DNA of 64,000 nt from positions 84,195 to 148,194 of the forward strand of contig PKTK01000003.1 of assembly GCA_002869165.1 (NCBI GenBank), written 5' to 3'. The translations under genes were made by a program, and so were the position numbers. Origin of the DNA: Candidatus Parcubacteria bacterium. Its GTDB lineage: Bacteria; Patescibacteriota; Patescibacteriia; Patescibacteriales; UBA12075. Position 1 is the first letter of the stretch, and each line of letters begins with the position of its first letter. A model generated the notes under the pieces. That model was not told where the DNA came from. It ran no database searches and saw nothing but the letters and a program-made list of their open reading frames with translations. Positions 1 to 37,656 of this stretch are shown one piece after another.

Positions 1-78
1 GTTGATAAAGTAAGCGGGAAGAACAAGAGTAATCAGGTGAGTGCTTATACGGTGTTTGCAGTTAAGTAAATAGTTGTT

Positions 79-173
79 CTTTTTGTCATTCCTGCGAAGG
101 CAGGAATTCAGACAAATAATACGATTGATCCCGGGTTCCTTCCGCTTCGCTTCAGGCCCCAGGGTGACAAAGG
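79..173. repeat. GC-rich palindromic repeat units, copy 1 of a dispersed family (other copies at 35232-35399 and 42295-42337)
   Basis: The stretch is G+C-rich within an AT-rich spacer. TTTTTGTCAT is followed by a perfect 8-bp hairpin, ATTCCTGC-GAAG-GCAGGAAT (88-107). A second unit runs 127-173: GATCCCGGGTTCC..TCCGCTTCGCTTCA..GGCCCCAGGGTGACAAA. The 14-mer TCCGCTTCGCTTCA (141-154) recurs exactly at 42308-42321. GATCCCGGGTTCC (127-139) and GGCCCCAGG (155-163) recur at 35361-35373 and 35381-35389. Confidence 0.6.
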
Positions 174-181
174 CAAATAAT

Positions 182-1312
182 ATGAAATTATATATAATAA
201 ACAATGTTAGGATGCCGACTGAGAAGGCACACGGATTTCAGATTGCAAAAATGTGTGAGAGTTTTGCGCTTCAAGGGGAGATAGTTGAGTTGATAATACC
301 AAGGCGGGATAATTTTATCAAAGAAGATATTTTTGATTATTATAATGTTGAGAAGAATTTTGAAATAAAACATTTGGATTCTTTTGATTTTTTTAAATTA
401 GAAAAGTTTATCGGTTCTAAATTGGCTTTTTATTTACAGAGCCTAGCATTTAAGTTCAAAGTTGGAAAGTTGAAAGTTGAAAGTAATGGAGTGGTGATGA
501 CTCGTAATCCGGAAATAGTTAGAGTTTTGAAAAAGAAAAAAATAAAAGTATTTTATGACGCACATCGTTGGCCTGAAACTAAGAGACAAATATTCAAGCA
601 CATGCTTAAGAATGTTGATGGGGTGATTTGTAACTCGATTGGTACAGCGCAAGCTTTTAAGGGTAATGGTTTTGTAAACATACTTGTTGCTCCGAACGGA
701 GTTGATTTAAAAGAATATAAGAAAGATGTTGATAAAACAGAAATAAAAAATAAATACAAGCTTCCACTTGATAAGAAAATATTAATGTATGTAGGCCATC
801 TCTATGATTGGAAAGGAGTAGATACTGTTATGGAGGCAGCTAAAGAAGTCGAGAACAAAGACTTGGTATTTGTTTTTGTGGGAGGTACTAAGAAGGATAT
901 TGAAAACTACAAATCAATCTCCAAGGAAAATAATTTAGAGAATGTGATATTCCTTGGACATGTAAAAAAAACGGAAATCGCTTTTTTGCAAAAAACAGCC
1001 GATGTTTTACTACTTCCCAATAAACCAATAAATAGAGAGTCGGAAAAATACACTTCACCGATTAAAATGTTTGAATATATGGCTAGTGGAGTAGTAGTAT
1101 TGGCCTCAAATCTTTCAAGTATTAGAGAGGTTTTGAACAAAAAAAATGCTATTCTTTTTCAAGCCGACAATTTGAAAGATTTTTTGGACAAAATTAACAT
1201 TATTTTTTCAAACAATGAAAAAGCCAAAGAATTGAGTAAGCAAGCCCTAATTGATGTAAGGAAATACTCCTGGGAAGAGCGAGCAAAAAAAATTATAAAT
1301 TTTGTTAATTAA
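182..1312 (+). CDS. glycosyltransferase family 4 (GT-B, group 1)
   Basis: This is ORF 74-1312. The ATG at 182 gives MKLYIINN.., a typical GT4 N-terminus. The C-terminal half has Glycos_transf_1-like segments (VGHLYDWKGVD, SPIKMFEYMASGVVVLAS). Codons 74-181 merely translate the GC-rich repeat. Confidence 0.85.
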   Translation: MKLYIINNVRMPTEKAHGFQIAKMCESFALQGEIVELIIPRRDNFIKEDIFDYYNVEKNFEIKHLDSFDFFKLEKFIGSKLAFYLQSLAFKFKVGKLKVESNGVVMTRNPEIVRVLKKKKIKVFYDAHRWPETKRQIFKHMLKNVDGVICNSIGTAQAFKGNGFVNILVAPNGVDLKEYKKDVDKTEIKNKYKLPLDKKILMYVGHLYDWKGVDTVMEAAKEVENKDLVFVFVGGTKKDIENYKSISKENNLENVIFLGHVKKTEIAFLQKTADVLLLPNKPINRESEKYTSPIKMFEYMASGVVVLASNLSSIREVLNKKNAILFQADNLKDFLDKINIIFSNNEKAKELSKQALIDVRKYSWEERAKKIINFVN

Positions 1313-1313
1313 T

Positions 1314-2009
1314 ATGAAATTTGATAAGTTATCTATTATTATTCCGGTATTCAATGAACGAGAAACAATTGAAAAAATTCTTCGAAATATTGAAGAGGCT
1401 GATTTAGGAGTTGAGAAGGAACTTATCATTGTTGATGATGGTTCGGTGGATGGCACAAGAGAAATACTTGAAGGACTTGAATATAAGTACAGAATAATTT
1501 ACCACGACAAGAATAGGGGAAAGGGAGCAGCAATGCGAACTGGCATAGATTCAGCAACAGGAGACTTTATAGTTCCTCAGGATGCAGACACCGAATATGA
1601 CCCGCTAGATCTTCGAGCTTTGATTGAAAGCGCTAAGCATAATAAGGCAAAAGCAGTATTTGGTTCAAGAAGACTTGGAAGAGCCAAGAAGAAAAACGTA
1701 AAAGCAGGTTGGTCTTATTATTTGGGAGGAGTGATGCTTACTTGGATTACAAACATTCTTTATGGCACACGTATCACCGATGAGCCTACTTGCTATAAGT
1801 TGGTAGACAGAGAACTTATAAGTAGCTTCGAGATTGAATCGCAAGGCTTTGAGTATTGTCCAGAAGTGACTGCGAAGATTGCTAAGAGGAAAATTAAAAT
1901 ACATGAAGTGCCTATTTCATATAATCCTAGAAGTATAGCAGGGGGAAAGAAGATAAGACCTAAGGATGGTTTAGTTGCAATTTGGACATTATTAAGATAT
2001 AGACTTTAA
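1314..2009 (+). CDS. glycosyltransferase family 2, soluble polyprenyl-phosphate-sugar-synthase-like
   Basis: GT2 motifs are present: LSIIIPVFNE, VDDGSVDGT and QDADTEYDP (DXD). The ATG at 1314 lies directly after the upstream TAA (1310-1312). The track ORF begins at a TTG at 1302. Confidence 0.85.
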   Translation: MKFDKLSIIIPVFNERETIEKILRNIEEADLGVEKELIIVDDGSVDGTREILEGLEYKYRIIYHDKNRGKGAAMRTGIDSATGDFIVPQDADTEYDPLDLRALIESAKHNKAKAVFGSRRLGRAKKKNVKAGWSYYLGGVMLTWITNILYGTRITDEPTCYKLVDRELISSFEIESQGFEYCPEVTAKIAKRKIKIHEVPISYNPRSIAGGKKIRPKDGLVAIWTLLRYRL

Positions 2010-2583: not shown

Positions 2584-4008
2584 ATGAATTATCAGGATAT
2601 TACAAAGAAAATAAGGGAATATAAATATTGGATATTACTAATTTTTGTTTTTATTTTAGTTAGAATAATTGTTGCAGTTGCTTATTATTTTGCAAATCTT
2701 GATATCGGTGGCTGGAATAACATATATGCTTATACTGACCTTTCTTACAATGTTGTTACAATGAAGCACCTGTTTAAGGCGACTTGTGGAGGCCTGCCAT
2801 TTTATTTCGTGTTTACTTCATTTGTGCAAGCAATATATGATAGTCATTGGTCTGTATATGTAGCGCAAATATTTGCAACTTTTTTTACATTTTATTTTAG
2901 CTATAAATCAATTAGATTGTATTTCTCAAAAAATGTTGCTGTGGCAACTTTGTTGTTGTTGGTGATTGACCCTTTTTATGCTTGGTATAATTTTATGTTT
3001 GCTAGTGGTAACCTTTTTTGTTTGTTTTTTGCTAGTGGTCTTTATAATTTTTTGTTGTTTATTAGAAATAAACAAACAAAAAATCTTGTTTATTTTAGTC
3101 TTTTGATTTCTATTTCTGTTTTAGTAAGAGCTACAGGCATATTATTGATACAAGTTTTTTCAGTTATCTTTATAATATTATTTTTTTATTATAAGTTTTT
3201 TGAAAAAGAAAAAAATTTTTTTGGGGTTAAAACTTTACTGTTATCAATTTTATTTATGAATTTTTGCTATGCTTTATTTGTGGGTGGAGCGGTTATAAAA
3301 AATAAAATTGACTACAATGATTATCGCTTGGCCCCGGACTTAATGACTAATGTTTATTTTTTTAATGTACCAGAGTTATTATCTCTCCAAGAAGGCATCA
3401 GTAATGGTGAGGCAAGAAAAAGACTTACTGATATAGCTAGTCGAGAAATTGATTTTAATATAACTAACATAGGCGATTGCAATAGTATGGGGCAGGAGAA
3501 ATTTAACTTATTTCTTGACTATGTAAATAAAGAAGGGAAGAAATATATTTGGGAGAATTGGTTTGCTTATTCAAAAATTCATTTTTATAAAATGATACCC
3601 TATTATCTGCAATCAGGATATTTTCAGATGTATGAAGGTTATTTTGGTTCAAAGAAAAAACCAAATATTAGCTCTGCAATAATGAATGGTGAGATAAAGG
3701 TGGTATTTGATTTTGTAAAGAAGTTTAATGCACCTGTTGCAATTTATTTCTTTGGTATAGCGTATTGGGGTCTAGCATCTTTTTCAATGTTTTTTACTTT
3801 AATATATTCCTGGTTTAAGGACAGGGAAAAGTTTGTATATATATTAATAATTAATATTTTAACTTTATATTTGGCTTTTACGGTTTCGCCATTTATTATG
3901 CCTAGATACAAGATCATTGCTTATCCTTTTTTCTTGCTATCTTTGATGTATTTTATTAGCATTGTGTTGAATTATATAAAATCACATAAAATAAGAGAAA
4001 AACTATGA
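2584..4008 (+). CDS. polytopic membrane protein, possible GT-C-type (ArnT/PMT-like) glycosyltransferase
   Basis: The 474-aa protein is very hydrophobic, with many predicted TM helices and one larger loop (about aa 245-330). It sits between polyprenyl-P-sugar-type GT2 genes. The family assignment is inference. Confidence 0.6.
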   Translation: MNYQDITKKIREYKYWILLIFVFILVRIIVAVAYYFANLDIGGWNNIYAYTDLSYNVVTMKHLFKATCGGLPFYFVFTSFVQAIYDSHWSVYVAQIFATFFTFYFSYKSIRLYFSKNVAVATLLLLVIDPFYAWYNFMFASGNLFCLFFASGLYNFLLFIRNKQTKNLVYFSLLISISVLVRATGILLIQVFSVIFIILFFYYKFFEKEKNFFGVKTLLLSILFMNFCYALFVGGAVIKNKIDYNDYRLAPDLMTNVYFFNVPELLSLQEGISNGEARKRLTDIASREIDFNITNIGDCNSMGQEKFNLFLDYVNKEGKKYIWENWFAYSKIHFYKMIPYYLQSGYFQMYEGYFGSKKKPNISSAIMNGEIKVVFDFVKKFNAPVAIYFFGIAYWGLASFSMFFTLIYSWFKDREKFVYILIINILTLYLAFTVSPFIMPRYKIIAYPFFLLSLMYFISIVLNYIKSHKIREKL

Positions 4009-4679
4009 AAATTTCTATAGTATTACCAATTTATAATGAAGAAAAAAACATCCCTATTCTTTATCAAGAGTTAAAAGAGGTATTCAATAAAACGGGCTTT
4101 GACTATGAGATAATTGCAGTTAATGATGGATCAAAAGATAAGTCTTGGTTAGAAATGAAAAATATTTCTGAAACTGATAGAAAGTATAAGTTGATAAATT
4201 TTAAATATAATTTTGGTCAGACCTCTGCCTTAGCTGCTGGCATTAAGCTAGCAAGTGGAGATGTAATAATTCCTATGGATTCAGACTTACAAAACGATCC
4301 GGCTGATATCCCAATATTTATAGACAAAATAAACGAAGGCTATGATGTAGTATCCGGTTGGAGACAGAAAAGATGGAAGGGAAACATGTTTTCAAGAAAA
4401 ATCCCGTCTGTTATAGCTAATTGGTTGATCGCTTTTATTACAGGAATAAAAATTCATGATAATGGTTGCACAATGAAAGCTTATAAGAGAGAAATAATTC
4501 AAGGTGTTAACCTATATGGAGAAATGCACAGATTTGTTGCTGCATATGCTTCTTGGAGAGGAGGTAGGGTGATTGAAATCATTGTAAATAGTCGCGAGAG
4601 AAAATACGGAAATACTAATTATGGTATCTCAAGAACATTTAAGGTTTTACTTGACTTAATTGTGTTTAAATTTATGTAA
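4005..4679 (+). CDS. GtrB/ArnC-like GT2 polyprenyl-phosphate glycosyltransferase, catalytic part (ends at in-frame TAA 4677-4679)
   Basis: Motifs ISIVLPIYNEE, AVNDGSKD and PMDSDLQNDP (DXD) are present. The ORF stops at ..LDLIVFKFM*, exactly where family members continue into the juxtamembrane and TM segment. Confidence 0.8.
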   Translation: MKISIVLPIYNEEKNIPILYQELKEVFNKTGFDYEIIAVNDGSKDKSWLEMKNISETDRKYKLINFKYNFGQTSALAAGIKLASGDVIIPMDSDLQNDPADIPIFIDKINEGYDVVSGWRQKRWKGNMFSRKIPSVIANWLIAFITGIKIHDNGCTMKAYKREIIQGVNLYGEMHRFVAAYASWRGGRVIEIIVNSRERKYGNTNYGISRTFKVLLDLIVFKFM

Positions 4680-4685
4680 AAATAT

Positions 4686-4952
4686 ATGAACAGGCCAATG
4701 CATTTTTTTGGTGGCCTGGGCTTTGCATCAATTTTTTTAGGTATTTTGGCAGGCTTAATATCAATCATTTTTAAGATTATTAAATATAAAACCATGATTG
4801 AAACCCCTCTACCAGTTTTGGCTGCTTTGTTTATCATAGTTGGAGTTCAGCTTGTTGTTATGGGAGTTATTGCTGAAATGAATATGCGAATATATTATGA
4901 AGCTCAAAAAAAGAGTCCATATGTAATAGATAAGAAAATTAATTTTGAATAG
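4686..4952 (+). CDS. C-terminal two-TM segment of the same GtrB/ArnC-like GT2 (same frame as 4005-4679)
   Basis: The sequence MNRPMHFFGGLGFASIFLGILAGL.. followed by a second TM helix is the canonical C-terminus of GtrB-type enzymes. It is in the same frame as the upstream piece and only three codons (TAA AAA TAT) separate them. Confidence 0.7.
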   Translation: MNRPMHFFGGLGFASIFLGILAGLISIIFKIIKYKTMIETPLPVLAALFIIVGVQLVVMGVIAEMNMRIYYEAQKKSPYVIDKKINFE

Positions 4953-4953
4953 T

Positions 4954-6861
4954 ATGTGTGGTATAGCCGGCTTCTACGGGAAGGGTAGTAGTGACAATTT
5001 ACTTAAGATGACTGATGCATTAGAGCATCGGGGCCCTGATGATAGAGGGCATTTTAGTGATGGCTTGGTCGGGCTTGGGCAGAGGCGTCTGTCTATTATT
5101 GATACTAGCAGAAATGGGCATCAACCAATGAGTAATGAAGATGAGTCTGTTTGGATTGTGTTTAATGGTGAGATATATAATTTTTTGTCATTGAAAGACA
5201 GACTTAAACAAAAGCATTGTTTTAAAAGCAGTAGTGACACAGAGGTTATTTTACATTTATATGAGGAAATAGGTGAAGAAGTTTTTTCTTTGCTTGAGGG
5301 AATGTTTGCAATTGCTATATATGACAAAGAAAAGGAAGAATTGTTCTTAGCAAGAGATAGAATGGGTAAGAAACCTCTTTACTATCATCTGAATGGTAAT
5401 TCTATTATTTTCGCTTCAGAGCTAAAAGCATTGGTTAAACATAGAGATTTTGTCAAAGAGTTGAATCATGAATCGCTTAAAATGTATTTGTTTTATGAGT
5501 ATATACCGACCCCCAATTCAATATACAAGAATACTTACAAACTTGAACCAGCAACTTATTTAAAATTTAAACACGGTAAACAAAGCAAACGAAGATTTTG
5601 GAACATGTCATTTTCCAGACAAGAAGTTGGTAACGAAAAAGAGGCTTTGCTAAAACTAGACACAGCTATAAACGATTCAGTGAAAGACAGACTGGTGAGT
5701 GATGTTCCTCTTGGGATTCTTCTAAGTGGAGGCATAGATTCTAGTGCTATATGTTATTATGCGCAAAAAAATAGCAGCAGTAAGGTTAAGACTTTTTCAA
5801 TAGGGTTCAAGGAATCAAGTTTTGACGAATCAAACTACGCTAGAGAGGTTGCGAATCATCTTGGAACAGATCATCACGAAGCAATTTTGAGCGCCAATGA
5901 TTCAATTGACTTGATTGAAAAAATCGGAGATGTATTAGATGAACCAATGGCAGATCAGTCTATTTTGCCTACTTATCTTTTGTCGAGATTTACTAAAGAA
6001 AACGTAACAGTAGCGCTTGGCGGAGATGGTGGTGACGAGCTTCTTGGAGGCTATGATACTTTTGTAGCACACAGACTAGCCGAGTTTTATGAGAAAATGC
6101 CAAGTTTCATGAGAGGGGAGTGGCTCAAGGACATAAGCTCCAAGCTTCCAACTTCTTTTTCCAATTTAAGTCTAGATTTTAAAATAAAAACATTTTTAGA
6201 TGGCTTTGAGGGTGAGAAAAAATACAGAGACGCCAGGTGGATGAAGGCATTTGATGTTAATGAGGGAAGTATGTTTGCAAGTAGACTAAAAGATGAAATA
6301 AAGGGCTTTAATGAATTTTTGCCAATTGATAAATATGGAGAAGAATTTGAGCAAATCAATTCGAGCGTTGGTTTTCAAAAACATTTTAATTTTTTGACTT
6401 ATCTGTATCTTCGAATGTATATGATGGATCAAGTTTTAGTAAAGGTAGATAGGGCCAGCATGGCTAATTCGCTTGAAGTAAGAGCGCCTTTACTTGATTC
6501 TAGGGTTGTTGATCTGTCTCTGAGTCTGTCACACAAGTACAAGCTTAGGCCTTTTGCTTGGCCGTATGTATTCGAGACAAAGTATATTTTCAGAAAATTG
6601 ATGCAAGACAAGTTGCCTAATGATATTGTGTGGCGCAAGAAAAAAGGTTTTGGCGTGCCAATGGCTGAGTGGTTGAACGGACCGTTGGAGGAATTGGTAA
6701 AAGAGAAATTGTCCAAAAGAAGAATAGAAGAACAGGGAATATTTGATTATAATTTTGTGAATAATTTAATTACAGACCATAAAAAAAAGAAACAAGACCT
6801 AAGAAAACCGATTTGGACTTTGTTGATGTTTCAGTTGTGGTTTGATAGATGGATGAAATAA
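4954..6861 (+). CDS. asnB: asparagine synthase (glutamine-hydrolysing)-type amidotransferase
   Basis: The N-terminal MCGIAG supplies the catalytic Cys after Met removal. The SGGIDSS PP-loop is present. The length is about 635 aa. The ATG at 4954 is preferred over the track start at 4945 so that Cys is residue 2. Confidence 0.9.
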   Translation: MCGIAGFYGKGSSDNLLKMTDALEHRGPDDRGHFSDGLVGLGQRRLSIIDTSRNGHQPMSNEDESVWIVFNGEIYNFLSLKDRLKQKHCFKSSSDTEVILHLYEEIGEEVFSLLEGMFAIAIYDKEKEELFLARDRMGKKPLYYHLNGNSIIFASELKALVKHRDFVKELNHESLKMYLFYEYIPTPNSIYKNTYKLEPATYLKFKHGKQSKRRFWNMSFSRQEVGNEKEALLKLDTAINDSVKDRLVSDVPLGILLSGGIDSSAICYYAQKNSSSKVKTFSIGFKESSFDESNYAREVANHLGTDHHEAILSANDSIDLIEKIGDVLDEPMADQSILPTYLLSRFTKENVTVALGGDGGDELLGGYDTFVAHRLAEFYEKMPSFMRGEWLKDISSKLPTSFSNLSLDFKIKTFLDGFEGEKKYRDARWMKAFDVNEGSMFASRLKDEIKGFNEFLPIDKYGEEFEQINSSVGFQKHFNFLTYLYLRMYMMDQVLVKVDRASMANSLEVRAPLLDSRVVDLSLSLSHKYKLRPFAWPYVFETKYIFRKLMQDKLPNDIVWRKKKGFGVPMAEWLNGPLEELVKEKLSKRRIEEQGIFDYNFVNNLITDHKKKKQDLRKPIWTLLMFQLWFDRWMK

Positions 6862-9807: not shown

Positions 9808-9809
9808 TT

Positions 9810-10547: not shown

Positions 10548-10553
10548 AAATCA

Positions 10554-12115: not shown

Positions 12116-12122
12116 TAATAAT

Positions 12123-20930: not shown

Positions 20931-20941
20931 ATTTATAAAAT

Positions 20942-21100
20942 ATGGGAAAATTAAAAATTTTAGTACAATTTTTTGAGTTTTTGAAAGTTAGGAAAAAATA
21001 TTGGCTTTTGCCAGTTGTTTTGGTTTTTGCTACGATTGGCTTATTACTGGTAGTTTCAGAAGGAAGCGTAGTAGCTCCATTTATATATACTTTGTTTTAG
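20942..21100 (+). CDS. DUF5989 / SxtK-like small membrane protein (52 aa, below the ORF-track cutoff)
   Basis: I translated this by hand as MGKLKILVQFFEFLKVRKKYWLLPVVLVFATIGLLLVVSEGSVVAPFIYTLF*. The pattern ..FLKVRKK.WL.P.. and the C-terminal APFIYTLF are the hallmarks of this family as I recall it. Confidence 0.7.
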   Translation: MGKLKILVQFFEFLKVRKKYWLLPVVLVFATIGLLLVVSEGSVVAPFIYTLF

Positions 21101-26361: not shown

Positions 26362-26368
26362 TTAAAAA

Positions 26369-28511: not shown

Positions 28512-28521
28512 GAGTTTTTTT

Positions 28522-28549
28522 AAAAGACAGTATTTAGATACTGTCTTTT
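28522..28549. terminator. intrinsic terminator hairpin at the convergent gene junction
   Basis: AAAAGACAGTAT-TTAG-ATACTGTCTTTT is followed by a T-run (28551-28558) on the + strand. The stop and last codons of the minus-strand gene 28534-29649 lie inside the hairpin. Confidence 0.7.
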
Positions 28550-29649: not shown

Positions 29650-29655
29650 GCGTGA

Positions 29656-30660: not shown

Positions 30661-31429
30661 ATAAATATTCTTTTAGGGCTTTTTCATAGGGGCGTAAACC
30701 TCCTTTAACTGAAGAGTCTTTGCACCGTTTTGCCACTTCTTTAAAATTATTATTAATATAGAATTTATCTTTTATGTTAAGTATTTTAGCGATTTTTTTA
30801 GCAAGAGTATATTTGGATACGGTTCCCTTGTTGGCTAGATCTTTTGTTTCATAGTTTTCCTTTTCAAAATTATCAATACAATATTTTGCAACATCTTTGA
30901 CATACGCAGGGGAGCCTAAGTAATTATCTGTTAAACCTAGTTTGTTGTTTTCTTTTAGGTTGTTTATTACAAATTCAACAAAATTATTTTTTTTGTCGGG
31001 ATTGCCAAAAAGCCACCCTAATCTGTATCTATAAGTCTTTTTGTGTTCAACAAGATCAGGTATTTGAAGAGATATTTTTTTTGTTAAAGCATAAACATTT
31101 GTTATTTCATTATCAACTGTGCTGCCAAAAAGCATTAAATCGATGTTTTTTTCTTTGCATATCTTATTTAAATAGTATACACCAAGTATATGTACATGCA
31201 AAGCTTCATTAGGGTCTCTTTCTACCTCATCAACGTTTATAAGACCGGCACAGTTTATTACTAAATTAATATCATTATTTATGTGTTTTTTTAAATCGTT
31301 TATTTTTGATATATTACATTCTTTTCTTGAGGGAGAGATAATATTATATTTTTTTCTTTTTTTGAGCTCTTCGGCGAAAGCGGTGCCAAGAATTCCTCCA
31401 CCACCAATTATTAAAATATTTTTTGTCAT
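30641..31429 (-). CDS. NAD(P)-dependent sugar-nucleotide reductase/epimerase, RmlD-like short SDR
   Basis: It has an N-terminal ILIIGGGGILG Rossmann motif, is 262 aa long, and overlaps both neighbouring genes. Confidence 0.65.
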   Translation of the reverse strand: MTKNILIIGGGGILGTAFAEELKKRKKYNIISPSRKECNISKINDLKKHINNDINLVINCAGLINVDEVERDPNEALHVHILGVYYLNKICKEKNIDLMLFGSTVDNEITNVYALTKKISLQIPDLVEHKKTYRYRLGWLFGNPDKKNNFVEFVINNLKENNKLGLTDNYLGSPAYVKDVAKYCIDNFEKENYETKDLANKGTVSKYTLAKKIAKILNIKDKFYINNNFKEVAKRCKDSSVKGGLRPYEKALKEYLYEKCNF

Positions 31430-32676
31430 TTTTTTATTATTGAAAAATAATACTCTATTATTATTGCGATAATATTAGAAATAATTATAGCATACAATAA
31501 TCCGTATATCCCGTAAAAATATATAAGTATTGTAAATAGAATTATTTTTATACTTGGGTTAAATATTCTTAAGAAATATAAAGTTTTAGTGTCTGCTTTA
31601 ACAATGATTATTTGAGATATGAGTCTCATTGGAAAGAATAGTAGAGTTACTGAAAATAATTGAGATAAAAGTATAGAATCTTGGTACTGAGGAAAAAATA
31701 TTTTATAAACAAAAGGCGCTACCATAATATAAAGTATCACCATAGGAATTAATAATATGGTAAATTTTAGTATTTTTAATGGAAAGGTTTTCTTTAACAA
31801 GGTTATATCTGTGTTTGACATTTTCGGAAGAGCTAGCGTTGTGACTGACTTTAAGAAAGATTGAGCTTGACTAACAGGAAGTGTTGCAAAAGAGTATATA
31901 GCTAGTTGAAGTGGGCCCAGAAAGTGCCAAAGCAATATTTTGTCAATTTGTTCCGCAACCACTGATACAATGTTCATGAGACTTAGGTGTTTGCCATAAG
32001 AGATAGTTCCTTCGTCTTTTTTGTTGTTGGGTGTGTATTTCCAAAAGGTGTATTTGTAAAATGAAAATTGTAGAATCATGTTAATTGCATAGAAACCCAC
32101 AACAATTGTGATTAATTTTGGGAAGGATAAAACTATTGTTGCGATAACGATTGATGAAATTATGTTTTTAAGGGAGTTGTATATTGAAGTAACTTTAAAT
32201 AGTTTTTTTCCTCGTAAGTATGACCCATAAACAAGACTGTTTATAAAAGGTGTTGTGACAGCCGCGATTAAAAAACAATATCCTAATTCAATATTTTTGT
32301 TGAAAAAGTAATAAAAAGAGATGAATATTCCTACAAGAGATCCTATAAGTGACCATTTTAGTTTTAATTTTATTGCCTCAGAAAATGACCCTTCATATCC
32401 GCGCGCGACTGACCTGGTTAATGAGATGTCAATCCCAGTAAGTGAAAACAAAATTAACATTGAAGAAACAGATAGTACATATTTGTAGGTTGCATAGGTT
32501 TCTTTTGGTAGAAAATTAGCATATATTACGGCTAACAAGAATGCGGTTATCGTTCCAACTAATTTATTTGAAGTTAACCAAAAACTACCCTTTGCAAGGT
32601 ATATCATATCTGTTTTTGTCCATTTTTCAGATTTTTTTAGAAGTTTGTATGTCTTGTTTTTTATATATTTGAACAT
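31426..32676 (-). CDS. polysaccharide flippase (Wzx / MOP superfamily)
   Basis: The 416-aa protein has about 12 TM helices and an N-terminus typical of polysaccharide-biosynthesis (PST) family proteins. It is the first gene of the minus-strand operon. Confidence 0.7.
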   Translation of the reverse strand: MFKYIKNKTYKLLKKSEKWTKTDMIYLAKGSFWLTSNKLVGTITAFLLAVIYANFLPKETYATYKYVLSVSSMLILFSLTGIDISLTRSVARGYEGSFSEAIKLKLKWSLIGSLVGIFISFYYFFNKNIELGYCFLIAAVTTPFINSLVYGSYLRGKKLFKVTSIYNSLKNIISSIVIATIVLSFPKLITIVVGFYAINMILQFSFYKYTFWKYTPNNKKDEGTISYGKHLSLMNIVSVVAEQIDKILLWHFLGPLQLAIYSFATLPVSQAQSFLKSVTTLALPKMSNTDITLLKKTFPLKILKFTILLIPMVILYIMVAPFVYKIFFPQYQDSILLSQLFSVTLLFFPMRLISQIIIVKADTKTLYFLRIFNPSIKIILFTILIYFYGIYGLLYAIIISNIIAIIIEYYFSIIKK

Positions 32677-32829: not shown

Positions 32830-35205
32830 ATGATTAAAAATTTTTTTATTATTAGAAAATATCGAAAGATATTTTTTTTGTTGGCTGTTTTCCTGTTTTT
32901 TGGCGTGCAACAGGTAAATGCAAAAACAGCAACCTCTACAATTAAAATTTATACTGATGAAACAGACGGTTATGTTACTAATTGGATACCTGATCATGGC
33001 ACATCTCAGGCTCTTTGGAATTTAACACATGATGCACCCGAGTCTAATATTAAAAATGAAAATAGAGATTTTATAGAAGTTGCCTCAGGATGGTGTGATG
33101 ATAGAAGGTTGTATATCCATAGAGCAAGGTTAATATTTGATTTATCTCAGGTGCCAGACACTTCTAATATTAAAAAAATAGAATTATTTGTAAATGGACG
33201 GAAAAAAAGGAATTCGTTAGATGATTATTATAGTTATGTTTCGGTTGTTGGTGCGAATTCATTTGAAAATTTAATTGAACAAGATTATTCAAGTATAGGG
33301 GAAAGTAATTTGATGGGTTGGGGCTATTCTTATTTAAATGATATTGTTGAAATTTCTGATAAAAAAAATATATCAGATTTTAAAGTTGGTGAGTATAATA
33401 GTTTTCTAATAAGTGATGAATTTGATAAATATGCAATAAACAAAAAATTATCACTTGGATTAAGAGAGGGGCACGATATTCATGATATTTATCCTAGTGA
33501 TTTTCCTGTTGATGGGGCAGAAAGAATCCATTTTTATTCCACAGAGCATGGTACAACGACTGCACCTTATTTAGAGATTACATATACTTATGATGATGGA
33601 GAACCTGAAAATGATACAAGCCCCCTCCTCATAATCCCCGGCATTATGGGTTCTTGGCGGGAAGGTGGTGAATTGGTTTTGGATCCGATACTTGGGACTT
33701 ATGATGAATTAGTTGAGACTTTTGATAGTACTGAGGAGTATGAGAAAGGGGTTAACTTTTTTTCATTTACTTATGAATGGAGGAATTCTAATGTGTTAAC
33801 AGCTAGCTATTTGGAAAGTAAGATAACTGGCATCAAAGAAAGTACGGGAGCAGACAAGGTGGATGTGATAGCTCATAGTATGGGTGGACTGGTTATGCGA
33901 GAATATCTGAGTGCTCCTGGTAATGAAGTTAATATAGGTAAATTAGTATTTTTGGCAACTCCTCATCGGGGTGCGCCTGAGGCTTATTTGACTTGGGAGG
34001 GTGGAGAATTTAGTGGTGGTGTCGGTTCTTGGGCAATTAAAAAAATATTCAAACAAGAGGCTAGGGAAAATGGCTATAAGAATATTTATAATTATGTGCG
34101 TGGTAATAGTATTTATTCTATTCAGGAATTATTGCCTATTTATGATTATTTAATTTATAAAGATAATTTGAGGGCATATCCCGTGGAATATCCTAGGAAC
34201 GAATTTCTTGAAAATTTAAATCAAGAGGATGTTTTGGATTCTTTAGCTGATAGCGGAGTGACTATTAGGAATTATTTGGGATCTGGTGAAAAAATGATTG
34301 ACTATATAAATGTAAAACCAGCAAATAATAAAAAAGATGAGTGGGAGTATGGCAAACCATACAAATTTAATCCATTTATTAAGGGAGAAGGAGATGGAAC
34401 TGTACCAGAGCGAAGTAATCAGAATTTCTTAGATCTTGATGACGTGACATTCGAGTCTAGTCATCGAGGGATTGTGAGTGATTCGAGTATGGATGTTTTT
34501 CAATTTTTAACTGGAGAGACCTTGCCCGAAGAAGAGCAAATGGCAATGTATAATCCTATTGAGTCTATGGTGTTTGTAATGGTGATGTCTCCGGTTGATT
34601 TACAGGTTATTAATGAAGAGGGAGAGCTGGCGGGTAAAGACTTTGAAACCGGAGAAAGTAAAAAAGAAATTCATAGATCATTCTATACGGGAAGTGACGC
34701 GAAGTCTGAGTTTGTTAGTATTGTGAATCCTGTAGAAGGGGATTATCAAATAAACCTTGAGGGGGTTGGTAAAGGTCCATACACCGTATTGGTGAGTATG
34801 TACAGAGATGGTGAGGAATTTGAAGAGTATCACAGAGGAGCAGTAAAGGAAGGTGAAATTATTAATTTAAACTTTGATATAAATGATGAGGGTCTTAGTA
34901 AAATTAAAAAAGAAAAAGAGAGTTGTGATTTGTTTTCTGTATTAAAACAAAAAATTAATCTAGCAAAAGAAGAAGGTTTTTTCAAGCGGGAGTCATATTA
35001 TAATTTGTTAATCAATAAAGTAGCAGCGATTGAGAAAGGATATACAAGTGAAAGCCATAGCAAAACGAAAAATAGAATTGTTAAATTTCGTTTAAAGGTA
35101 TTAAAAGCGCAACTAAGTTTTTATAAAGTAGCTGAATGGTTGGATGCTGATGTAGTTGATGACATAAAATCTGAGATTGATAATATTATTAACTTAATAG
35201 ATTGA
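32830..35205 (+). CDS. secreted multidomain alpha/beta-hydrolase (LCAT/PGAP1-like lipase-esterase core)
   Basis: A signal-peptide-like N-terminus (..FFLLAVFLFFGVQQVNA) is followed by LLIIPGIMGSW. Candidate Ser-Asp-His triad elements are the nucleophile elbow AHSMGG, GDGTVPERS and SSHRGIV. Unknown domains of about 250 aa (N-terminal) and about 230 aa (C-terminal) flank the core. The ATG at 32830 is preferred over the TTG at 32818. Confidence 0.7.
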   Translation: MIKNFFIIRKYRKIFFLLAVFLFFGVQQVNAKTATSTIKIYTDETDGYVTNWIPDHGTSQALWNLTHDAPESNIKNENRDFIEVASGWCDDRRLYIHRARLIFDLSQVPDTSNIKKIELFVNGRKKRNSLDDYYSYVSVVGANSFENLIEQDYSSIGESNLMGWGYSYLNDIVEISDKKNISDFKVGEYNSFLISDEFDKYAINKKLSLGLREGHDIHDIYPSDFPVDGAERIHFYSTEHGTTTAPYLEITYTYDDGEPENDTSPLLIIPGIMGSWREGGELVLDPILGTYDELVETFDSTEEYEKGVNFFSFTYEWRNSNVLTASYLESKITGIKESTGADKVDVIAHSMGGLVMREYLSAPGNEVNIGKLVFLATPHRGAPEAYLTWEGGEFSGGVGSWAIKKIFKQEARENGYKNIYNYVRGNSIYSIQELLPIYDYLIYKDNLRAYPVEYPRNEFLENLNQEDVLDSLADSGVTIRNYLGSGEKMIDYINVKPANNKKDEWEYGKPYKFNPFIKGEGDGTVPERSNQNFLDLDDVTFESSHRGIVSDSSMDVFQFLTGETLPEEEQMAMYNPIESMVFVMVMSPVDLQVINEEGELAGKDFETGESKKEIHRSFYTGSDAKSEFVSIVNPVEGDYQINLEGVGKGPYTVLVSMYRDGEEFEEYHRGAVKEGEIINLNFDINDEGLSKIKKEKESCDLFSVLKQKINLAKEEGFFKRESYYNLLINKVAAIEKGYTSESHSKTKNRIVKFRLKVLKAQLSFYKVAEWLDADVVDDIKSEIDNIINLID

Positions 35206-35231: not shown

Positions 35232-35399
35232 CTTTTGTCATACTGGACGCCGAAGGCGATCCGGGATCCAGGAGTGCGAGAACATAGTATTGATAATAGT
35301 CTAATGTTTATCGGGTTCCAAGTGTTTGCATGTAGTTATTATTTTTGTGGGTAAACCCTGGATCCCGGGTTCCGCTCCGCGGCCCCAGGATTACAAAAA
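35232..35399. repeat. composite inverted-repeat element built from two GC-rich family units flanking an AT-rich core (MITE-like architecture, no ORF)
   Basis: The left arm is CTTTTGTCATACTGGACGCCGAAGGCGATCCGGGATCCAGG. The reverse complement of the right arm is TTTTTGTAATCCTGGGGCCGCGGAGCGGAACCCGGGATCCAGG. The two arms include a perfect 12-bp inverted pair, CCGGGATCCAGG (35261-35272) and CCTGGATCCCGG (35357-35368). Confidence 0.6.
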
Positions 35400-35510
35400 T
35401 ATGCTTTTGTTGGGAAAATAGTTTTAAATAAAGTAAAGTCACTTATGCATAAACGTTAATATTATACAGCCAGATTGATTTGACTATTATTTGTAAAATG
35501 ATAAAATATA

Positions 35511-35548
35511 AAAGAACGGAGAGTGGCCGTTCTTTTATTTATTTTTTT
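35511..35548 (+). terminator. intrinsic terminator-like hairpin plus T-run
   Basis: AAAGAACGG-AGAGTGG-CCGTTCTTT is followed by TATTTATTTTTTT. Confidence 0.55.
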
Positions 35549-35689: not shown

Positions 35690-36229
35690 ATGACAAATAA
35701 CAATAAAAAAGGTTTTGTGCTTTGGTTTACGGGGTTTTCAGCAGCAGGGAAAACCACTATAGCTGATAAGGTTCATGAACTTCTTAAGCATAATGGCAAT
35801 AGACTTGAGAGATTGGATGGTGATATTGTTAGGAAAAATCTCACCCAAGATCTTGGTTTTTCCAAAGAAGATCGTGATGAAAATATTCGACGGATTGGCT
35901 TTGTGGCAAATTTATTATCAAGAAATGACATCGGTGTGATAGCTTCGTTTATCTCCCCTTATCGAGCCCAGAGAGAAATGCTTAGAGAAAATGTCACAAA
36001 CTTTATTGAGATATTTGTTGATGCGCCTATTGAGGTTTGTGAGAGCAGGGACCCAAAAGGAATGTACAAGAAAGCGAGAGCCGGGGAACTCAAAAATTTT
36101 ACTGGAGTAGATGACCCCTATGAGCCACCTGAAAATCCTGACATTCATTTACTATCCAGCGAGCATTCTCCAGATGATTTGGCTAAAGTAGTGTTAAGTT
36201 TTTTAAGGACCAATGATTATATAGATTAA
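35690..36229 (+). CDS. cysC: adenylylsulfate (APS) kinase
   Basis: It has the P-loop FTGFSAAGKTT, plus LDGDIVR, FSKEDRDENIRR and SFISPY. The length is 179 aa. Confidence 0.9.
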   Translation: MTNNNKKGFVLWFTGFSAAGKTTIADKVHELLKHNGNRLERLDGDIVRKNLTQDLGFSKEDRDENIRRIGFVANLLSRNDIGVIASFISPYRAQREMLRENVTNFIEIFVDAPIEVCESRDPKGMYKKARAGELKNFTGVDDPYEPPENPDIHLLSSEHSPDDLAKVVLSFLRTNDYID

Positions 36230-36242
36230 TTTTTTTTGAATA

Positions 36243-36276
36243 AAAAAAGTAGCGCTTATTTAAGTGCTACTTTTTA
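36243..36276. terminator. bidirectional intrinsic terminator between convergent cysC and the sugar transferase gene
   Basis: An A-run is followed by the AGTAGCGC-TTATTTAA-GTGCTACT hairpin (one G.U pair) and then a T-run. Confidence 0.65.
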
Positions 36277-36285
36277 TTTGTTAGA

Positions 36286-37656
36286 TTAGATTCCAGCTCT
36301 ACTTAATACGGTTGAAATAGTTTTGAGTATAATGCTGGTATCTAAGTATAGAGAGCGATTTTTTATGTAAAATAAATCATATTGTAATTTTTTCAAGGTG
36401 TCTTCCTCTGAGGGTGAGTGGTATTCACCTGATACCTGATCCCAACCAGTTAGGCCTGGTTTGACTAGTAGGCGCTCCTTATAAAATGGTACGCTTTTTT
36501 CCAGTCTCTCTATTATTTCTGGTCGTTCAGGTCTTGGCCCAATGAAGCTCATATCACCAAGTAAGATATTAATCACTTGAGGAATCTCATCAATGCGAGA
36601 CTTTCTCAAGAAGTTTCCTATTTTGGTGGTACGGCGATCATTCTTCTTGGCTGGTTCAGGATCCTCCGAGTTAATGGTTTTTTGGGTACGGAATTTTAGT
36701 ATCGAAAAAACCCTCCCGTCTTTACCTACTCGTTTTTGCATGAAAAAAACAGATTCTTTGTTTTCTATTTTTAAAAGAAGTCCGATCAAAGGCCAGAACA
36801 CAGCTGTGCTTATTAAGATAAAAGAAGCAATAGCCACATCATATATTCTCTTTATTGTGTCGTAAGTATTTTTACTACCTTCGGATAAATTTTCCAGAAA
36901 CCAACTCTCTGAAATTGCTTCAATCGGCACCTTACCAGTAATTTGTTCATAAAAATTGCTGAAGTTTTGAAAATTGATTTTAAGTGGTAAACAGGAAAAA
37001 AGAATAGATCTGAGTTCTTTTGACTGACTTAGATCGCTTGAAGTTATAATGGTATTTATTTTCTCTTTTTTGATAGTTGCTTTGATTTTATAAATATTGC
37101 TTTGTACAGGAATGCCGTCTAGATAATAACCGGTATGATTGGAAAAAATTGTAGAAATTTCATAACCTAGATGAGGTTTTTGTCTGAGTGAACGAACCAG
37201 TTCTTGAACCTGGCTATTGTAGCCGATAAAAGCAATTCTTATTTTCGGTAAATAGGAATTGAGTGACCAGTTAAAAAATCTTCTCCAAAGAAGAAAAAGA
37301 CCAGTGAAAATAATCAAATAGATCACCAGGTTTCTTTTTGGAGCAATATCTATGTGAGAATTTAAGTAGAAAAAAACAGCTGATATTAAAATAGCAATAA
37401 ATATAGACTTGAATGATTTGCTGGTAAATTTTTCGTTATTAACGGCTAAATGTAAGTTATATAGATCATTAATGTAAAATATAATTATCCATGCTATATA
37501 AACAATAGAAAAATACCAAAAGTGCTTGAACCAGGTTTCGCTTCCGGGAATACTAAAATACCTCACTACTAAAGTGAGATAAAGAGATGAATATAATACT
37601 ATTATGTCGCCTAATATTAGTATTAATTTTTTATTTTTATGGTTGTTCATGGCCAA
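36286..37656 (-). CDS. polyprenyl glycosylphosphotransferase (WbaP/exopolysaccharide sugar transferase family), initiating enzyme
   Basis: The N-terminal half has several TM helices. The C-terminal bacterial sugar transferase domain has KRIYDVAIASFIL, FMQKRVGKDGRVFSILKFRT, DEIPQVINILLGDMSFIGPRPERPE and PGLTGWDQV. Confidence 0.9.
   Translation of the reverse strand: MAMNNHKNKKLILILGDIIVLYSSLYLTLVVRYFSIPGSETWFKHFWYFSIVYIAWIIIFYINDLYNLHLAVNNEKFTSKSFKSIFIAILISAVFFYLNSHIDIAPKRNLVIYLIIFTGLFLLWRRFFNWSLNSYLPKIRIAFIGYNSQVQELVRSLRQKPHLGYEISTIFSNHTGYYLDGIPVQSNIYKIKATIKKEKINTIITSSDLSQSKELRSILFSCLPLKINFQNFSNFYEQITGKVPIEAISESWFLENLSEGSKNTYDTIKRIYDVAIASFILISTAVFWPLIGLLLKIENKESVFFMQKRVGKDGRVFSILKFRTQKTINSEDPEPAKKNDRRTTKIGNFLRKSRIDEIPQVINILLGDMSFIGPRPERPEIIERLEKSVPFYKERLLVKPGLTGWDQVSGEYHSPSEEDTLKKLQYDLFYIKNRSLYLDTSIILKTISTVLSRAGI

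Follow-up and report, generated by a model that had tools for sequence, protein, structure and literature searches.

A probable mosaic cell-surface glycan locus with candidate sugar-acting radical-SAM enzymes in a Candidatus Parcubacteria bacterium

What does a bacterium from a lineage of minimal genomes make with a gene cluster whose predicted products would not only assemble sugars but also methylate, sulfate, carbamoylate and amidate them, and on what do the radical S-adenosylmethionine (radical-SAM) enzymes of the same cluster act? The question arises from a stretch of 64,000 nucleotides of a Candidatus Parcubacteria bacterium (contig PKTK01000003.1, positions 84,195 to 148,194), here called the window, to whose numbering coordinates refer unless a contig is named. 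Bacteria of the Candidate Phyla Radiation (CPR) combine minimal genomes with a life presumed to be spent attached to host cells, which gives their surface chemistry, as yet almost unknown, a central place in their biology. The left part of the window, with the sequence just upstream of it, is probably a mosaic cell-surface glycan locus of ~45.5 kb and 42 genes, equipped with a Wzx flippase and GT-C glycosyltransferases, exceptional in its tailoring capacity and containing radical-SAM enzymes that act on sugars. On this reading a CPR bacterium devotes ~45 kb to a glycan that probably contains galactofuranose and bears methyl, sulfate, carbamoyl and amide groups. The type of locus is familiar, and its most interesting part is a set of uncharacterised radical-SAM families linked to GT4 glycosyltransferases, methyltransferases and short-chain dehydrogenases/reductases (SDRs).

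Extent and anchoring of the locus

In the list of open reading frames (ORFs), an almost gap-free run of plus-strand genes extends to 28511 and is followed by a minus-strand block (28534-32676) and three further genes to 37656. Pfam and NCBIfam scans, which took in every ORF of at least 100 aa in positions 1-42000, found nearly all ORFs between 212 and 37650 to be carbohydrate-active, and every island ORF that could be annotated was either carbohydrate-active or donor-supplying. The first-pass annotation of this DNA had proposed a ~37-kb glycan-biosynthesis island of unusual chemical breadth. The domain inventory bears out the breadth: the profile-HMM check upheld almost all of the genes proposed, each where it had been placed, and the contrary suggestion, that most of the ORFs are not carbohydrate-active, fails. 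Of the proposed limits, the right-hand one (~37656) is correct, with housekeeping genes only beyond it, but the left end is cut by the window. Three sister assemblies contain the same region (Logan SRR5894289, ENA ERZ794999 and JGI 3300007102), with ~35 differences from the window over 50,455 compared positions and 99.94% identity across one 20.5-kb stretch. Upstream of position 1 the sister assemblies have nine further genes, in the order rSAM4 (radical SAM/SPASM), GT4, sulfotransferase, GT4, sulfotransferase, methyltransferase, P-loop kinase-like, sulfotransferase and methyltransferase. The left border lies at about window position -7866, where amidase, thioredoxin-like and GIY-YIG genes precede rSAM4, and window and sister assemblies together give a complete island of ~45.5 kb and ~42 genes.

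The island totals seven GT4 and three GT2 glycosyltransferases, at least two GT-C enzymes, a WbaP-type phosphoglycosyl transferase, a Wzx, seven methyltransferases, four radical-SAM proteins and three sulfotransferases, with single genes for CysC, AsnB, a carbamoyltransferase, GalE, UDP-galactopyranose mutase (UGM) and an SDR, plus several proteins without assignment. Some earlier counts shift accordingly. The near-gapless plus-strand run stands, with 26 genes instead of ~30 once split genes are rejoined, and the ~9 GT2/GT4 enzymes of the window become eight (five GT4 and three GT2), the extra count having come from a gene split by a stop codon. Pfam recovered the five class I methyltransferases of the window (2011, 8980, 12099, 12821 and 23211), the Wzx of the minus-strand operon, CysC and the WbaP-like initiating transferase, and Pfam and NCBIfam the AsnB-type amidotransferase, the carbamoyltransferase module, GalE and the RmlD-like reductase, all as first described. 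Packing is tight: 11 gene pairs overlap, and most other gaps are shorter than 20 nt. The whole window has ~32-34% GC (island 0.317 versus 0.342 in the remainder) and a strongly positive GC skew. The skew is still positive, at 0.05-0.09, across the minus-strand operon at 28.5-32.7 kb.

Is this a unit inherited as a whole? A scan of metagenome contigs with WbaP yielded 80 loci. In at least ten metagenome loci with WbaP relatives of ~50-60% identity, one side of the gene is always the same divergently transcribed block, comprising DNA polymerase III delta'-like, BNR, frr and rseP genes and then hpf, secA and secD where the contig reaches. On the other side, island homologues are patchy and differ by contig, and genes for SDRs, methyltransferases, Wzx, glycosyltransferases, NeuB and GT11 are found. 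A Pfam survey of this variable side (77 ORFs, 17 loci) returned SDR epimerase/dehydratase families in 14 ORFs, methyltransferases in 8, Wzx in 5, GT4 and ATP sulfurylase in 4 each, CysQ-like phosphatase in 3, and APS kinase, GT2, GT11 and NeuB in 2 each. Sub-modules of the island are spread separately, the rSAM2 set (methyltransferase, LPG_synthase_TM, GT4) in other phyla and the rSAM3-SDR pair in other CPR. As judged from gene order and homology, this is a hypervariable mosaic glycan locus at a conserved chromosomal site, with wbaP as the fixed anchor, and sulfate activation is, by the same comparison, a recurrent theme beside wbaP. The island is thus not one co-inherited unit, only wbaP and its flank being conserved; all modules are nevertheless carbohydrate-related, and the picture is not one of unrelated operons. 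Such a mosaic pattern is normal for surface-glycan loci. The wbaP anchor offers a simple handle with which to catalogue glycan diversity across Parcubacteria metagenomes.

Among known systems, the closest in layout are Wzx-dependent O-antigen and capsule loci of the WbaP type (e.g. Salmonella rfb), with which the island shares Bac_transf, Wzx, many GT2 and GT4 enzymes, GalE and UGM, as well as slightly lower GC and hypervariable content between conserved flanks. Unlike those loci, it has no recognisable Wzy, Wzz, export or ligase genes, lies in a CPR bacterium, extends over ~45 kb, and holds four radical-SAM enzymes, three sulfotransferases, seven methyltransferases, a carbamoyltransferase and an amidotransferase. 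Radical-SAM enzymes had been called uncommon in canonical O-antigen or capsule loci; this holds for model O-antigen loci, but glycan loci rich in such enzymes recur in other CPR genomes sampled, and the present genome is not the only one to have them.

The radical-SAM enzymes and their substrates

The three radical-SAM genes first described (starting at 10958, 14660 and 29656) are indeed embedded in operons, with overlapping start and stop codons, and a fourth lies upstream of the window. rSAM1 (10958-12115, plus strand; Radical_SAM 1e-17, SPASM 3.6e-9) has a C-terminal SPASM/twitch-type domain and overlaps both neighbours. rSAM2 (14660-15733, plus strand; Radical_SAM 2.5e-18, SPASM 1.6e-12) has a twitch-like C-terminal domain. 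rSAM3 (29656-30660, minus strand; Radical_SAM 3.7e-9, SPASM 7.6e-9) is a radical SAM/SPASM protein whose gene is translationally coupled to the upstream gene for an RmlD-like SDR reductase (30641-31429, minus strand; RmlD_sub_bind 3.9e-29), the two overlapping by 20 nt. All four proteins, rSAM1-4, match PF04055 at 37-67 bits against a cut-off of 29.5. Radical-SAM enzymes normally carry a CX3CX2C motif, which is present in rSAM2, rSAM3 and rSAM4; rSAM1 has CX3CX3C (CNLNCPYYC, C74-X3-C78-X3-C82, residues 74-82). The cysteines of rSAM2 comprise the motif at 36/40/43 and C269, C287/288, C332 and C335. The four proteins differ in their C-terminal cysteines, of which there are four in rSAM1, four in rSAM4, five in rSAM2 and seven in rSAM3. 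Twitch domains bind one auxiliary cluster and full SPASM domains two, the latter through a motif of about seven cysteines (PMC9012708). By this count rSAM1, rSAM2 and rSAM4 would have cysteines enough for one auxiliary cluster only and look twitch-like rather than full SPASM, and rSAM3 may carry a full SPASM domain. With four to five C-terminal cysteines, rSAM1, rSAM2 and rSAM4 are akin to sugar enzymes of antibiotic pathways such as AprD4/AprD3, BtrN, DesII and BlsE; BtrN is a twitch enzyme that oxidises a cyclitol C-H (PMC9012708).

The SPASM domain is typical of peptide maturases, and this raises the alternative that the radical-SAM/SPASM proteins are peptide or protein maturases, part of the locus making a ribosomally synthesised and post-translationally modified peptide (RiPP) or a peptide of the type made by anaerobic sulfatase-maturating enzymes (anSME), or maturing, for example, a sulfatase. 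Many peptide-maturase models do appear among the sub-threshold NCBIfam matches, and the top fold matches of rSAM2 include SuiB, SkfB, CteB and anSME. Every NCBIfam match, however, is far under its cut-off: no curated model reaches the cut-off for any of the radical-SAM proteins, and the best matches are generic (a W-cofactor maturase model at 54-143 bits versus 380, and anSME at no more than 55 versus 349, the anSME model TIGR03942 scoring 55, 37 and 37 bits). Sequence searches against the PDB gave remote matches only, and just rSAM1 reached E<1e-6, to the peptide maturase CteB. Only 16-70 residues precede the cluster motif in the radical-SAM proteins, in the rSAM2 model one N-terminal helix is all that comes ahead of the barrel, and rSAM1, rSAM2 and rSAM3 overlap or abut neighbouring genes. 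Because of these short N-termini and close neighbours there is no room for a RiPP recognition element (RRE) domain or a precursor-peptide gene. The island was found to contain no gene for a protease, a peptide exporter or a sulfatase, and the window as a whole none for a sulfatase; relatives of the enzymes are flanked by or fused to GT4 enzymes and methyltransferases. An anSME or peptide-maturase identity was ruled out on the NCBIfam scores together with the missing RRE and the lack of space for a precursor gene, and the broader proposal that peptides are made or matured here is very improbable.

Can structure settle the substrate? The first-pass annotation had suggested structural modelling, which for rSAM2 matched peptide and sugar enzymes about equally and was uninformative on substrate. 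The AlphaFold2 (AF2) model of rSAM2 (predicted local distance difference test, pLDDT, 81; predicted template-modelling score, pTM, 0.84) matches SuiB, DesII, BlsE, SkfB, CteB, anSME, viperin, BtrN and MoaA at template-modelling scores (TM) of 0.5-0.66. As far as the model goes, the fold would leave the choice between peptide and sugar substrates undecided, and gene context decides.

That context is consistent. In the window the order is GT4, rSAM1, methyltransferase, methyltransferase, LPG_synthase_TM, rSAM2, GT-C. An exhaustive HMMER search gave 233 representatives of the rSAM2 family at E<=1e-30, with relatives of 30-45% identity in Deltaproteobacteria, Fibrobacter, Vecturithrix/UASB270, Armatimonadota and Planctomycetota. 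GT4 genes occupy 6 of 13 positions upstream of rSAM2 relatives. Class I methyltransferase genes adjoin such relatives, with overlapping starts in contig L004 and in a JGI contig, and further neighbours are LPG_synthase_TM, GT2, polysaccharide deacetylase, epimerase and TylF-type methyltransferase genes. Contig L008 repeats the window trio of rSAM2, methyltransferase and LPG_synthase_TM, and one of the window's methyltransferases matches, at 235 bits, a homologue adjoining the rSAM2 relative there; LPG_synthase_TM is an immediate neighbour of the rSAM2 relatives of both L004 and L008 and lies close to an rSAM3 relative in L131. Natural fusions within the rSAM2 family join the same partners in one chain: GT4 with rSAM (P0171, 757 aa), rSAM with a GT4 C-terminal domain (P0281, 729 aa) and a class I methyltransferase with rSAM (P0189, 661 aa). 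These partner types are those that flank rSAM1 and rSAM2 in the window. Because relatives adjoin or fuse to GT4 enzymes and methyltransferases within glycan loci, rSAM1-4 are probably sugar-tailoring enzymes and not peptide maturases.

Giant relatives of rSAM2, of 950-1930 aa, also occur (P0201, P0206, P0230, P0233, P0239, P0249, P0279 and P0283). By Pfam, P0201, P0230, P0233, P0239 and P0283 contain two to four tandem radical-SAM modules each, P0239 with a B12-binding domain in addition; P0206, P0249 and P0279 have multiple matched stretches in the HMMER search only. The window protein rSAM2 itself is deposited as 'hypothetical protein C0583_03820', reported to be 100% identical.

For rSAM3 the partner is an SDR. 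Its family gave 260 matches, whose source-named members are mostly Patescibacteria or Parcubacteria. An RmlD/epimerase-type SDR gene directly adjoins the rSAM3 relative, with overlapping stop and start, in three of the four foreign contexts, and all four contexts are glycan loci with Wzx, GT4, GT2, NeuB, CMP-sugar synthetase, DegT or C-methyltransferase genes. In its pairing of genes, rSAM3-SDR recalls AprD4/AprD3, in which a radical-SAM dehydratase and a dedicated reductase act on a sugar in C3'-deoxygenation (PMC5461906). Unlike AprD4/AprD3, BtrN, DesII and BlsE, which belong to secondary metabolism and of which DesII, BlsE and BtrN are among the structural neighbours of rSAM2, the enzymes here are set in a cell-surface glycan locus. 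Elsewhere in CPR, one glycan locus packs six radical-SAM genes into 17 kb. Genes for B12-binding (class B) radical-SAM enzymes are numerous in several such loci (L131/L132:710-13272, L135:3660-9277 and L133:11015-12445); five of them lie in one 17-kb stretch, interleaved with GT4, Wzx and methyltransferase genes and an rSAM3-SDR pair.

Paralogues within the island are old and divergent, at ~26-28% identity among the radical-SAM proteins and 22-40% among the methyltransferases, with sulfotransferases barely alignable; presumably each has its own specificity. Tied by neighbours, overlaps and fusions to GT4 enzymes, methyltransferases and reductases, the radical-SAM families are candidates for new radical sugar chemistry. 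More tentatively, rSAM1-4 and their relatives might be undescribed glycan-tailoring radical families coupled to GT4 enzymes, class I methyltransferases and SDRs, which modify sugars at the C-H level by deoxygenation, epimerisation, C-alkylation or the formation of a keto group while these are bound to a nucleotide or a lipid; this wider proposal is possible, though rather doubtful as it stands. If it is true, radical-SAM-rich sulfated surface-glycan loci would be a general and so far overlooked trait of CPR, possibly tied to their episymbiotic lifestyle. A search of the literature, which was not exhaustive, gave nothing relevant on sulfotransferases of CPR or on radical-SAM enzymes in their glycan loci.

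Predicted assembly, decoration and destination of the glycan

What might the locus build? The oligosaccharide would be started on polyprenyl phosphate by the WbaP-type initiating phosphoglycosyl transferase (36286-37650, minus strand; Bac_transf 6e-58, with CoA_binding_3) and extended in the cytoplasm by GT4 and GT2 enzymes. In the window, all on the plus strand, the GT4 genes are at 212-1312 (366 aa; Glycos_transf_1 3.7e-26; start as called in the sister assemblies), 9780-10961 (393 aa intact; Glyco_transf_4 and Glycos_transf_1 halves on two same-frame ORFs), 22168-23208 (Glycos_transf_1 6.7e-18), 25276-26385 (369 aa intact, as in a sister assembly; Glycos_transf_1 7.5e-26) and 27273-28511 (Glycos_transf_1 1.2e-36), the last closing the operon. 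The GT2 genes are at 1314-2009 (Glycos_transf_2 4.2e-32), 4005-4952 (315 aa intact, as in three other assemblies; Glycos_transf_2 2.2e-31) and 26369-27253 (Glycos_transf_2 4.8e-35). A soluble protein of 371 aa (28534-29649, minus strand), with a sub-threshold Glyco_trans_1_2 match (E 0.029), is possibly GT-B-like; in L136, too, the rSAM3 relative has a Glyco_trans_1_2 protein as its direct neighbour. Lacking hydrophobic segments, the 371-aa protein was ruled out as a Wzy.

Precursors would include UDP-Gal and UDP-galactofuranose, supplied by GalE and a UGM of eukaryote type. The GalE-like NAD-dependent sugar epimerase/dehydratase is encoded at 21114-22133 (plus strand; GDP_Man_Dehyd 2.5e-58, Epimerase 3.9e-51). 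What had been called a UGM-like flavoenzyme (23920-25272, plus strand) proved to match solved UDP-galactopyranose mutases over its full length, with residues 5-450 covered (3uka and 3ute at ~1e-112, 4dsg at 1.3e-119) and an NCBIfam assignment of PRK07208 type; the Pfam GLF domain was not detected in it. Because of this full-length match to solved enzymes, galactofuranose is a likely building block of the glycan. The enzyme is the long form known from trypanosomes and fungi and not the short bacterial Glf.

The Wzx-type (MOP-family) flippase (31426-32676, minus strand; Polysacc_synt 9.7e-22) would then flip the oligosaccharide unit. On the outer face two GT-C enzymes, a polytopic PMT_2 protein and a 582-aa GT-C-fold protein, would add sugars from polyprenyl-phosphate sugars made by the short GT2 enzymes and moved by the flippase-like LPG_synthase_TM protein. 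The first-pass annotation had listed three GT-C-like membrane proteins. One, an ArnT/PMT-like protein with eight hydrophobic segments (2584-4008, plus strand), is upheld by Pfam (PMT_2 6.6e-10, 39.9 bits versus a cut-off of 26.1). The second (15734-17482, plus strand; 582 aa intact, as in a sister assembly) is upheld by its predicted fold: its AF2 model (pLDDT 74.9, pTM 0.77) is of a GT-C membrane fold, and the top 22 Foldseek matches in the PDB are all GT-C (E down to 1.3e-5, TM 0.45-0.51), among them STT3, DPY19, AftA, PglB, AglB, ArnT, ALG3 and Pmt1. It has no sequence match in Pfam, NCBIfam or the PDB (the last at E<=10), and its family is small, with 11 matches of which the named ones are Parcubacteria/Paceibacterota. 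The third, a polytopic protein of 637 aa with 13 hydrophobic segments (7056-8969, plus strand), is without detectable family, with no match in Pfam, NCBIfam or the PDB (E<=10); it is a candidate polymerase, ligase or GT-C and could be the missing polymerase or ligase. Profile comparison gave no relationship of either this protein or the PMT_2 protein to the 582-aa family.

Each of the two GT-C enzymes adjoins short GT2 genes or the flippase-like protein, and because of this arrangement a three-component architecture for extracytoplasmic glycosylation is proposed. The GT2 at 1314-2009, by its size and the adjacent GT-C, would be a polyprenyl-phosphate sugar synthase of the GtrB/ArnC type, and the LPG_synthase_TM protein (13710-14657, plus strand; LPG_synthase_TM 2.1e-42), which is MprF-flippase-like, a flippase for lipid-linked sugars. 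The known three-component systems GtrA/GtrB/GtrC, ArnC/ArnEF/ArnT and CsbB/GtcA/YfhO are comparable in that short GT2 genes flank the PMT_2 GT-C gene here and the flippase-like protein precedes the GT-C-fold protein; similarly, Deltaproteobacteria contig L004 has PMT, YfhO, GT2 and LPG_synthase_TM genes around its rSAM2 homologue. Unlike those systems, the putative flippase here is LPG_synthase_TM (MprF-like) and not GtrA, and methyltransferase and radical-SAM genes are interposed, suggesting that the lipid-linked sugar may be modified.

Decoration would be extensive. Seven divergent class I methyltransferases are predicted to take part, those of the window being encoded on the plus strand at 2011-2580 (Methyltransf_23/11/25), 8980-9807 (Methyltransf_31/23/12), 12099-12824 (Methyltransf_12/25/23), 12821-13705 (Methyltransf_11 5.9e-21) and 23211-23855 (Methyltransf_23 2.1e-21). 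An AsnB-type glutamine amidotransferase (4954-6861, plus strand; Asn_synthase 1.7e-99, GATase_7 3.8e-46) would probably convert a uronic acid to a uronamide. Carbamoylation would be the task of a NodU/CmcH-type carbamoyltransferase (17479-19296, plus strand; 605 aa intact), whose Carbam_trans_N (4.4e-67) and Carbam_trans_C (1.5e-71) domains lie on two same-frame ORFs in the window and in one 605-aa polypeptide in a sister assembly. Both enzymes have the complete architecture of their known counterparts, the NodU/CmcH carbamoyltransferases (Carbam_trans_N + C) and the WbpS/AsnB-type amidotransferases (GATase + Asn_synthase). Unlike NodU/CmcH, the carbamoyltransferase here travels with SGNH-like, small membrane and DUF5989 proteins. 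The genes at 17479-21100 are tightly packed on the plus strand: downstream of the carbamoyltransferase come a membrane-anchored protein of 416 aa that has one N-terminal hydrophobic segment (19259-20509), a small protein with three hydrophobic segments and no Pfam or NCBIfam match (20514-20930), and a DUF5989 small membrane protein of 52 aa (20942-21100; PF19451 3.7e-21; gene call in a sister assembly). Their arrangement suggests a four-gene carbamoylation cassette. The second of these had been taken for an SGNH esterase, for which the signal is weak (Lipase_GDSL_2 25.6 bits versus a cut-off of 32.9).

Sulfation, first listed as possible, can be raised to probable: three Sulfotransfer_1/3 proteins are encoded just upstream of the window (sister assemblies, Pfam), and PAPS-pathway genes stand beside wbaP in relatives, PAPS being 3'-phosphoadenosine-5'-phosphosulfate. 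The sulfotransferases would use PAPS made by the CysC adenylylsulfate kinase (35690-36229, plus strand; APS_kinase 2.7e-63), the sole PAPS-pathway gene in the window. Sulfated-polysaccharide loci, such as those for capsules of marine Vibrio and Cobetia (PMC11641403, PMC11766843), likewise have sulfotransferases among glycosyltransferases and PAPS-pathway genes. The present locus differs in its CPR lineage and in having CysC only as the PAPS gene of the window, with ATP sulfurylase, APS kinase and CysQ-like genes beside wbaP in its relatives. A related Parcubacteria-type contig (L063:12246-15032, minus strand) has next to wbaP a gene for a fused chain of 929 aa in which a pyruvate-kinase barrel and PUA_2 are joined to ATP sulfurylase and APS kinase; this is a PAPS synthase on whose N-terminus a kinase barrel would not be expected.

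To these steps the four radical-SAM enzymes would add the abstraction of hydrogen from sugar C-H bonds, as context and fusions suggest. rSAM3 and the RmlD-like SDR would probably catalyse first a dehydration or oxidation by radical chemistry and then a reduction with NAD(P)H, with net deoxygenation or epimerisation, as in AprD4/AprD3, and the twitch-like rSAM1, rSAM2 and rSAM4 would work with GT4 and methyltransferase partners. A large alpha/beta hydrolase with an N-terminal anchor (32830-35205, plus strand; LCAT 5.8e-11, PGAP1 7.7e-9) is LCAT/PGAP1-like and of uncertain membership in the pathway; a weak homologue lies near wbaP in L054.

Where would such a glycan go? In one alternative the locus makes no free polysaccharide but glycosylates proteins, for example pilins or surface-layer proteins, or decorates a wall polymer or glycolipid, the GT-C enzymes transferring the Wzx-flipped oligosaccharide and polyprenyl-phosphate sugars to proteins or wall polymers. 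The best structural matches of the 582-aa protein, the oligosaccharyltransferases STT3 and PglB and the C-mannosyltransferase DPY19, speak for it, as do the presence of a PMT_2 protein and the absence of Wzy, Wzz, LCP or export genes among the annotated ORFs; Pfam matched no ORF to a Wzy or O-antigen-ligase family, and no Wzz, Wza or LCP was found among window ORFs of at least 100 aa (Pfam) or among the upstream genes of the sister assemblies. Yet the TM is only ~0.45-0.5, ArnT and AftA, with lipid or glycan acceptors, match equally well, no acceptor protein gene is evident in the locus, and the 13-segment protein at 7056 could be an unrecognised polymerase. On balance a protein or wall acceptor is unlikely, though it deserves serious attention.

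Several points weigh against the reading of the island as a surface-glycan locus with sugar-acting radical-SAM enzymes. Enzyme activities and the glycan structure are predicted for every part. No recognisable Wzy, chain-length regulator, LCP ligase or oligosaccharyltransferase family was detected by Pfam among the annotated ORFs, and no ATP sulfurylase gene was found in the 64 kb. The fold search with rSAM2 ranks the peptide maturases SuiB, SkfB, CteB and anSME level with DesII, BlsE and BtrN; the fusion proteins, called from metagenomes, could include mis-assemblies; and the LCAT-like hydrolase, the SGNH-like protein and the small membrane proteins are without assigned role. The locus may, finally, encode more than one product.

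Junctions, private stop codons and flanking genes

That last point has a specific form, in which the island consists of two or more independent glycan pathways side by side: a compact sulfated-glycan set (the upstream rSAM4, GT4, sulfotransferase, methyltransferase and kinase-like genes with cysC and wbaP) would have received a block of ~35 kb (212-35205) between its halves. Exactly at the two junctions lie copies of a GC-rich palindromic intergenic element. Copy 1 (84..190) separates the upstream sulfotransferase module from the GT4 gene at 212; copy 2 (35232..35400), with inverted arms at 35245-35272 and 35357-35384, lies within the 484-nt gap before cysC. The copies share the exact 13-mer GATCCCGGGTTCC and ~45 nt of flanking similarity (copy 1 versus 35357-35400), and enclose the 35-kb block (212-35205) between them. 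Apart from these two copies in the window, the 13-mer GATCCCGGGTTCC is absent from ~58 kb of this organism's sequence compared, and ~0.03 chance matches are expected for a 14-mer containing it. The copies could be like repetitive extragenic palindromic (REP) sequences or miniature inverted-repeat transposable elements (MITEs), or else the footprint of a cassette insertion; the insertion of the 35-kb block into a smaller sulfated-glycan locus is a possibility and, with two copies only, a lead. A riboswitch or known RNA was also considered for the 484-nt gap, with no credible Rfam match and a folding z-score of only -1.74.

Independent pathways would also agree with the PAPS genes directly beside wbaP in relatives, with the independent distribution of the sub-modules and with separate transcription units set off by terminator-like hairpins. 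Such hairpins, each a consensus match only, lie between the convergent operons (28521-28550, a 13-bp stem and T run), 3' of the LCAT-like gene (35508-35538) and between cysC and wbaP (36244-36275). Against this, two copies of the element may bracket the block by coincidence, only one initiating transferase and one Wzx are encoded in the locus, there is no GC step at the junctions, and neither an integrase nor any other recombinase gene was found, although immediately beyond the left border there is a gene with a GIY-YIG nuclease domain. Two pathways in one island are therefore a fair minority possibility, below an even chance, and a single mosaic locus is preferred. The GIY-YIG gene lies at L128:1032-1718 (~8.1-8.8 kb upstream of window position 1), and a divergently oriented ORF for a hydrophobic protein of 65 aa stands immediately before rSAM4 at the same border.

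Is the mosaic locus intact in this organism? In the deposited sequence five genes contain in-frame TAA codons private to the window (4677-4679, 10545-10547, 17024-17026, 18181-18183 and 26359-26361). The GT2 at 4005 is reduced to 224 aa versus 315 aa intact, the GT4 at 9780 (393 aa intact) is split, the 582-aa membrane protein at 15734 is split into 430 + 147 aa, the carbamoyltransferase at 17479 (605 aa intact) is split, and the GT4 at 25276 (369 aa intact) loses its last 8 residues. Every other assembly covering these five positions has a sense codon there, TCA or GAA; the first two sites can be compared in three other assemblies and the remaining three in one. The GT4 at 9780 is uninterrupted elsewhere, at 393 aa in two assemblies and 383 aa, with a later start, in the third. 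The variant sites are 4678 (C>A) and 10545 (G>T), as well as 17025, 18181 and 26360, and 30 of the 35 differences between window and sister assemblies are C>A or G>T in the window. Where a position is covered by all three other assemblies, these share one base, different from that of the window, in nearly every case.

These stops could be real, in which case the locus would be decaying in this strain and its glycan altered or no longer made; five window genes do hold a premature TAA, and the NCBI record annotates a truncated 430-aa product (C0583_03825). Sense codons in assemblies of the same population wherever comparison is possible (three for two stops, one for three) argue otherwise, as does the bias of the differences toward C>A or G>T, which fits damage, consensus errors or extremely recent mutations. 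Of the C>A/G>T differences 27 are coding, and these give 5 stops, 7 synonymous and 15 nonsynonymous changes; because stops are not depleted relative to random expectation (5/27 versus 12%, P=0.24), the private changes look unselected. The bias and the lack of purifying selection point to errors, whether from oxidative damage or in the consensus, and at most to mutations of very recent date; most likely the five stops are assembly or sequencing artefacts, and decay of the locus is improbable. The genes are described here in their intact form because the stops look artefactual. Read-through of TAA or a variant genetic code was ruled out, given the sense codons in other assemblies and the many normal genes that TAA terminates. 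The window copies of rSAM1 and rSAM2 also carry private substitutions. A public assembly in which C>A/G>T consensus errors very probably create false pseudogenes calls for caution among its users.

Beyond 37656 the right flank comprises genes for a DNA polymerase III delta'-like protein, a BNR protein, RRF, RseP, HPF, SecA, SecDF, a ProS-like protein, MreBC, PBP2, HrcA, GrpE, DnaK and DnaJ. An Rfam scan of the whole 64 kb gave no tRNA or other family at gathering score. The BNR protein, a sortilin/Vps10-like beta-propeller (38816-39877), lies between the DNA polymerase III delta'-like gene and frr in every related contig examined (L055-L069), an odd fixed member of a housekeeping block. The N-terminal periplasmic region of SecD (45829-47916) is interrupted by two PpiC-type peptidyl-prolyl isomerase (rotamase) domains, which makes the protein a foldase-translocon fusion; its architecture is the same in the sister contig. 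In GrpE (55613-56416), a NUDIX hydrolase domain (residues 8-118) stands N-terminal to the GrpE domain (136-266), an unusual co-chaperone fusion.

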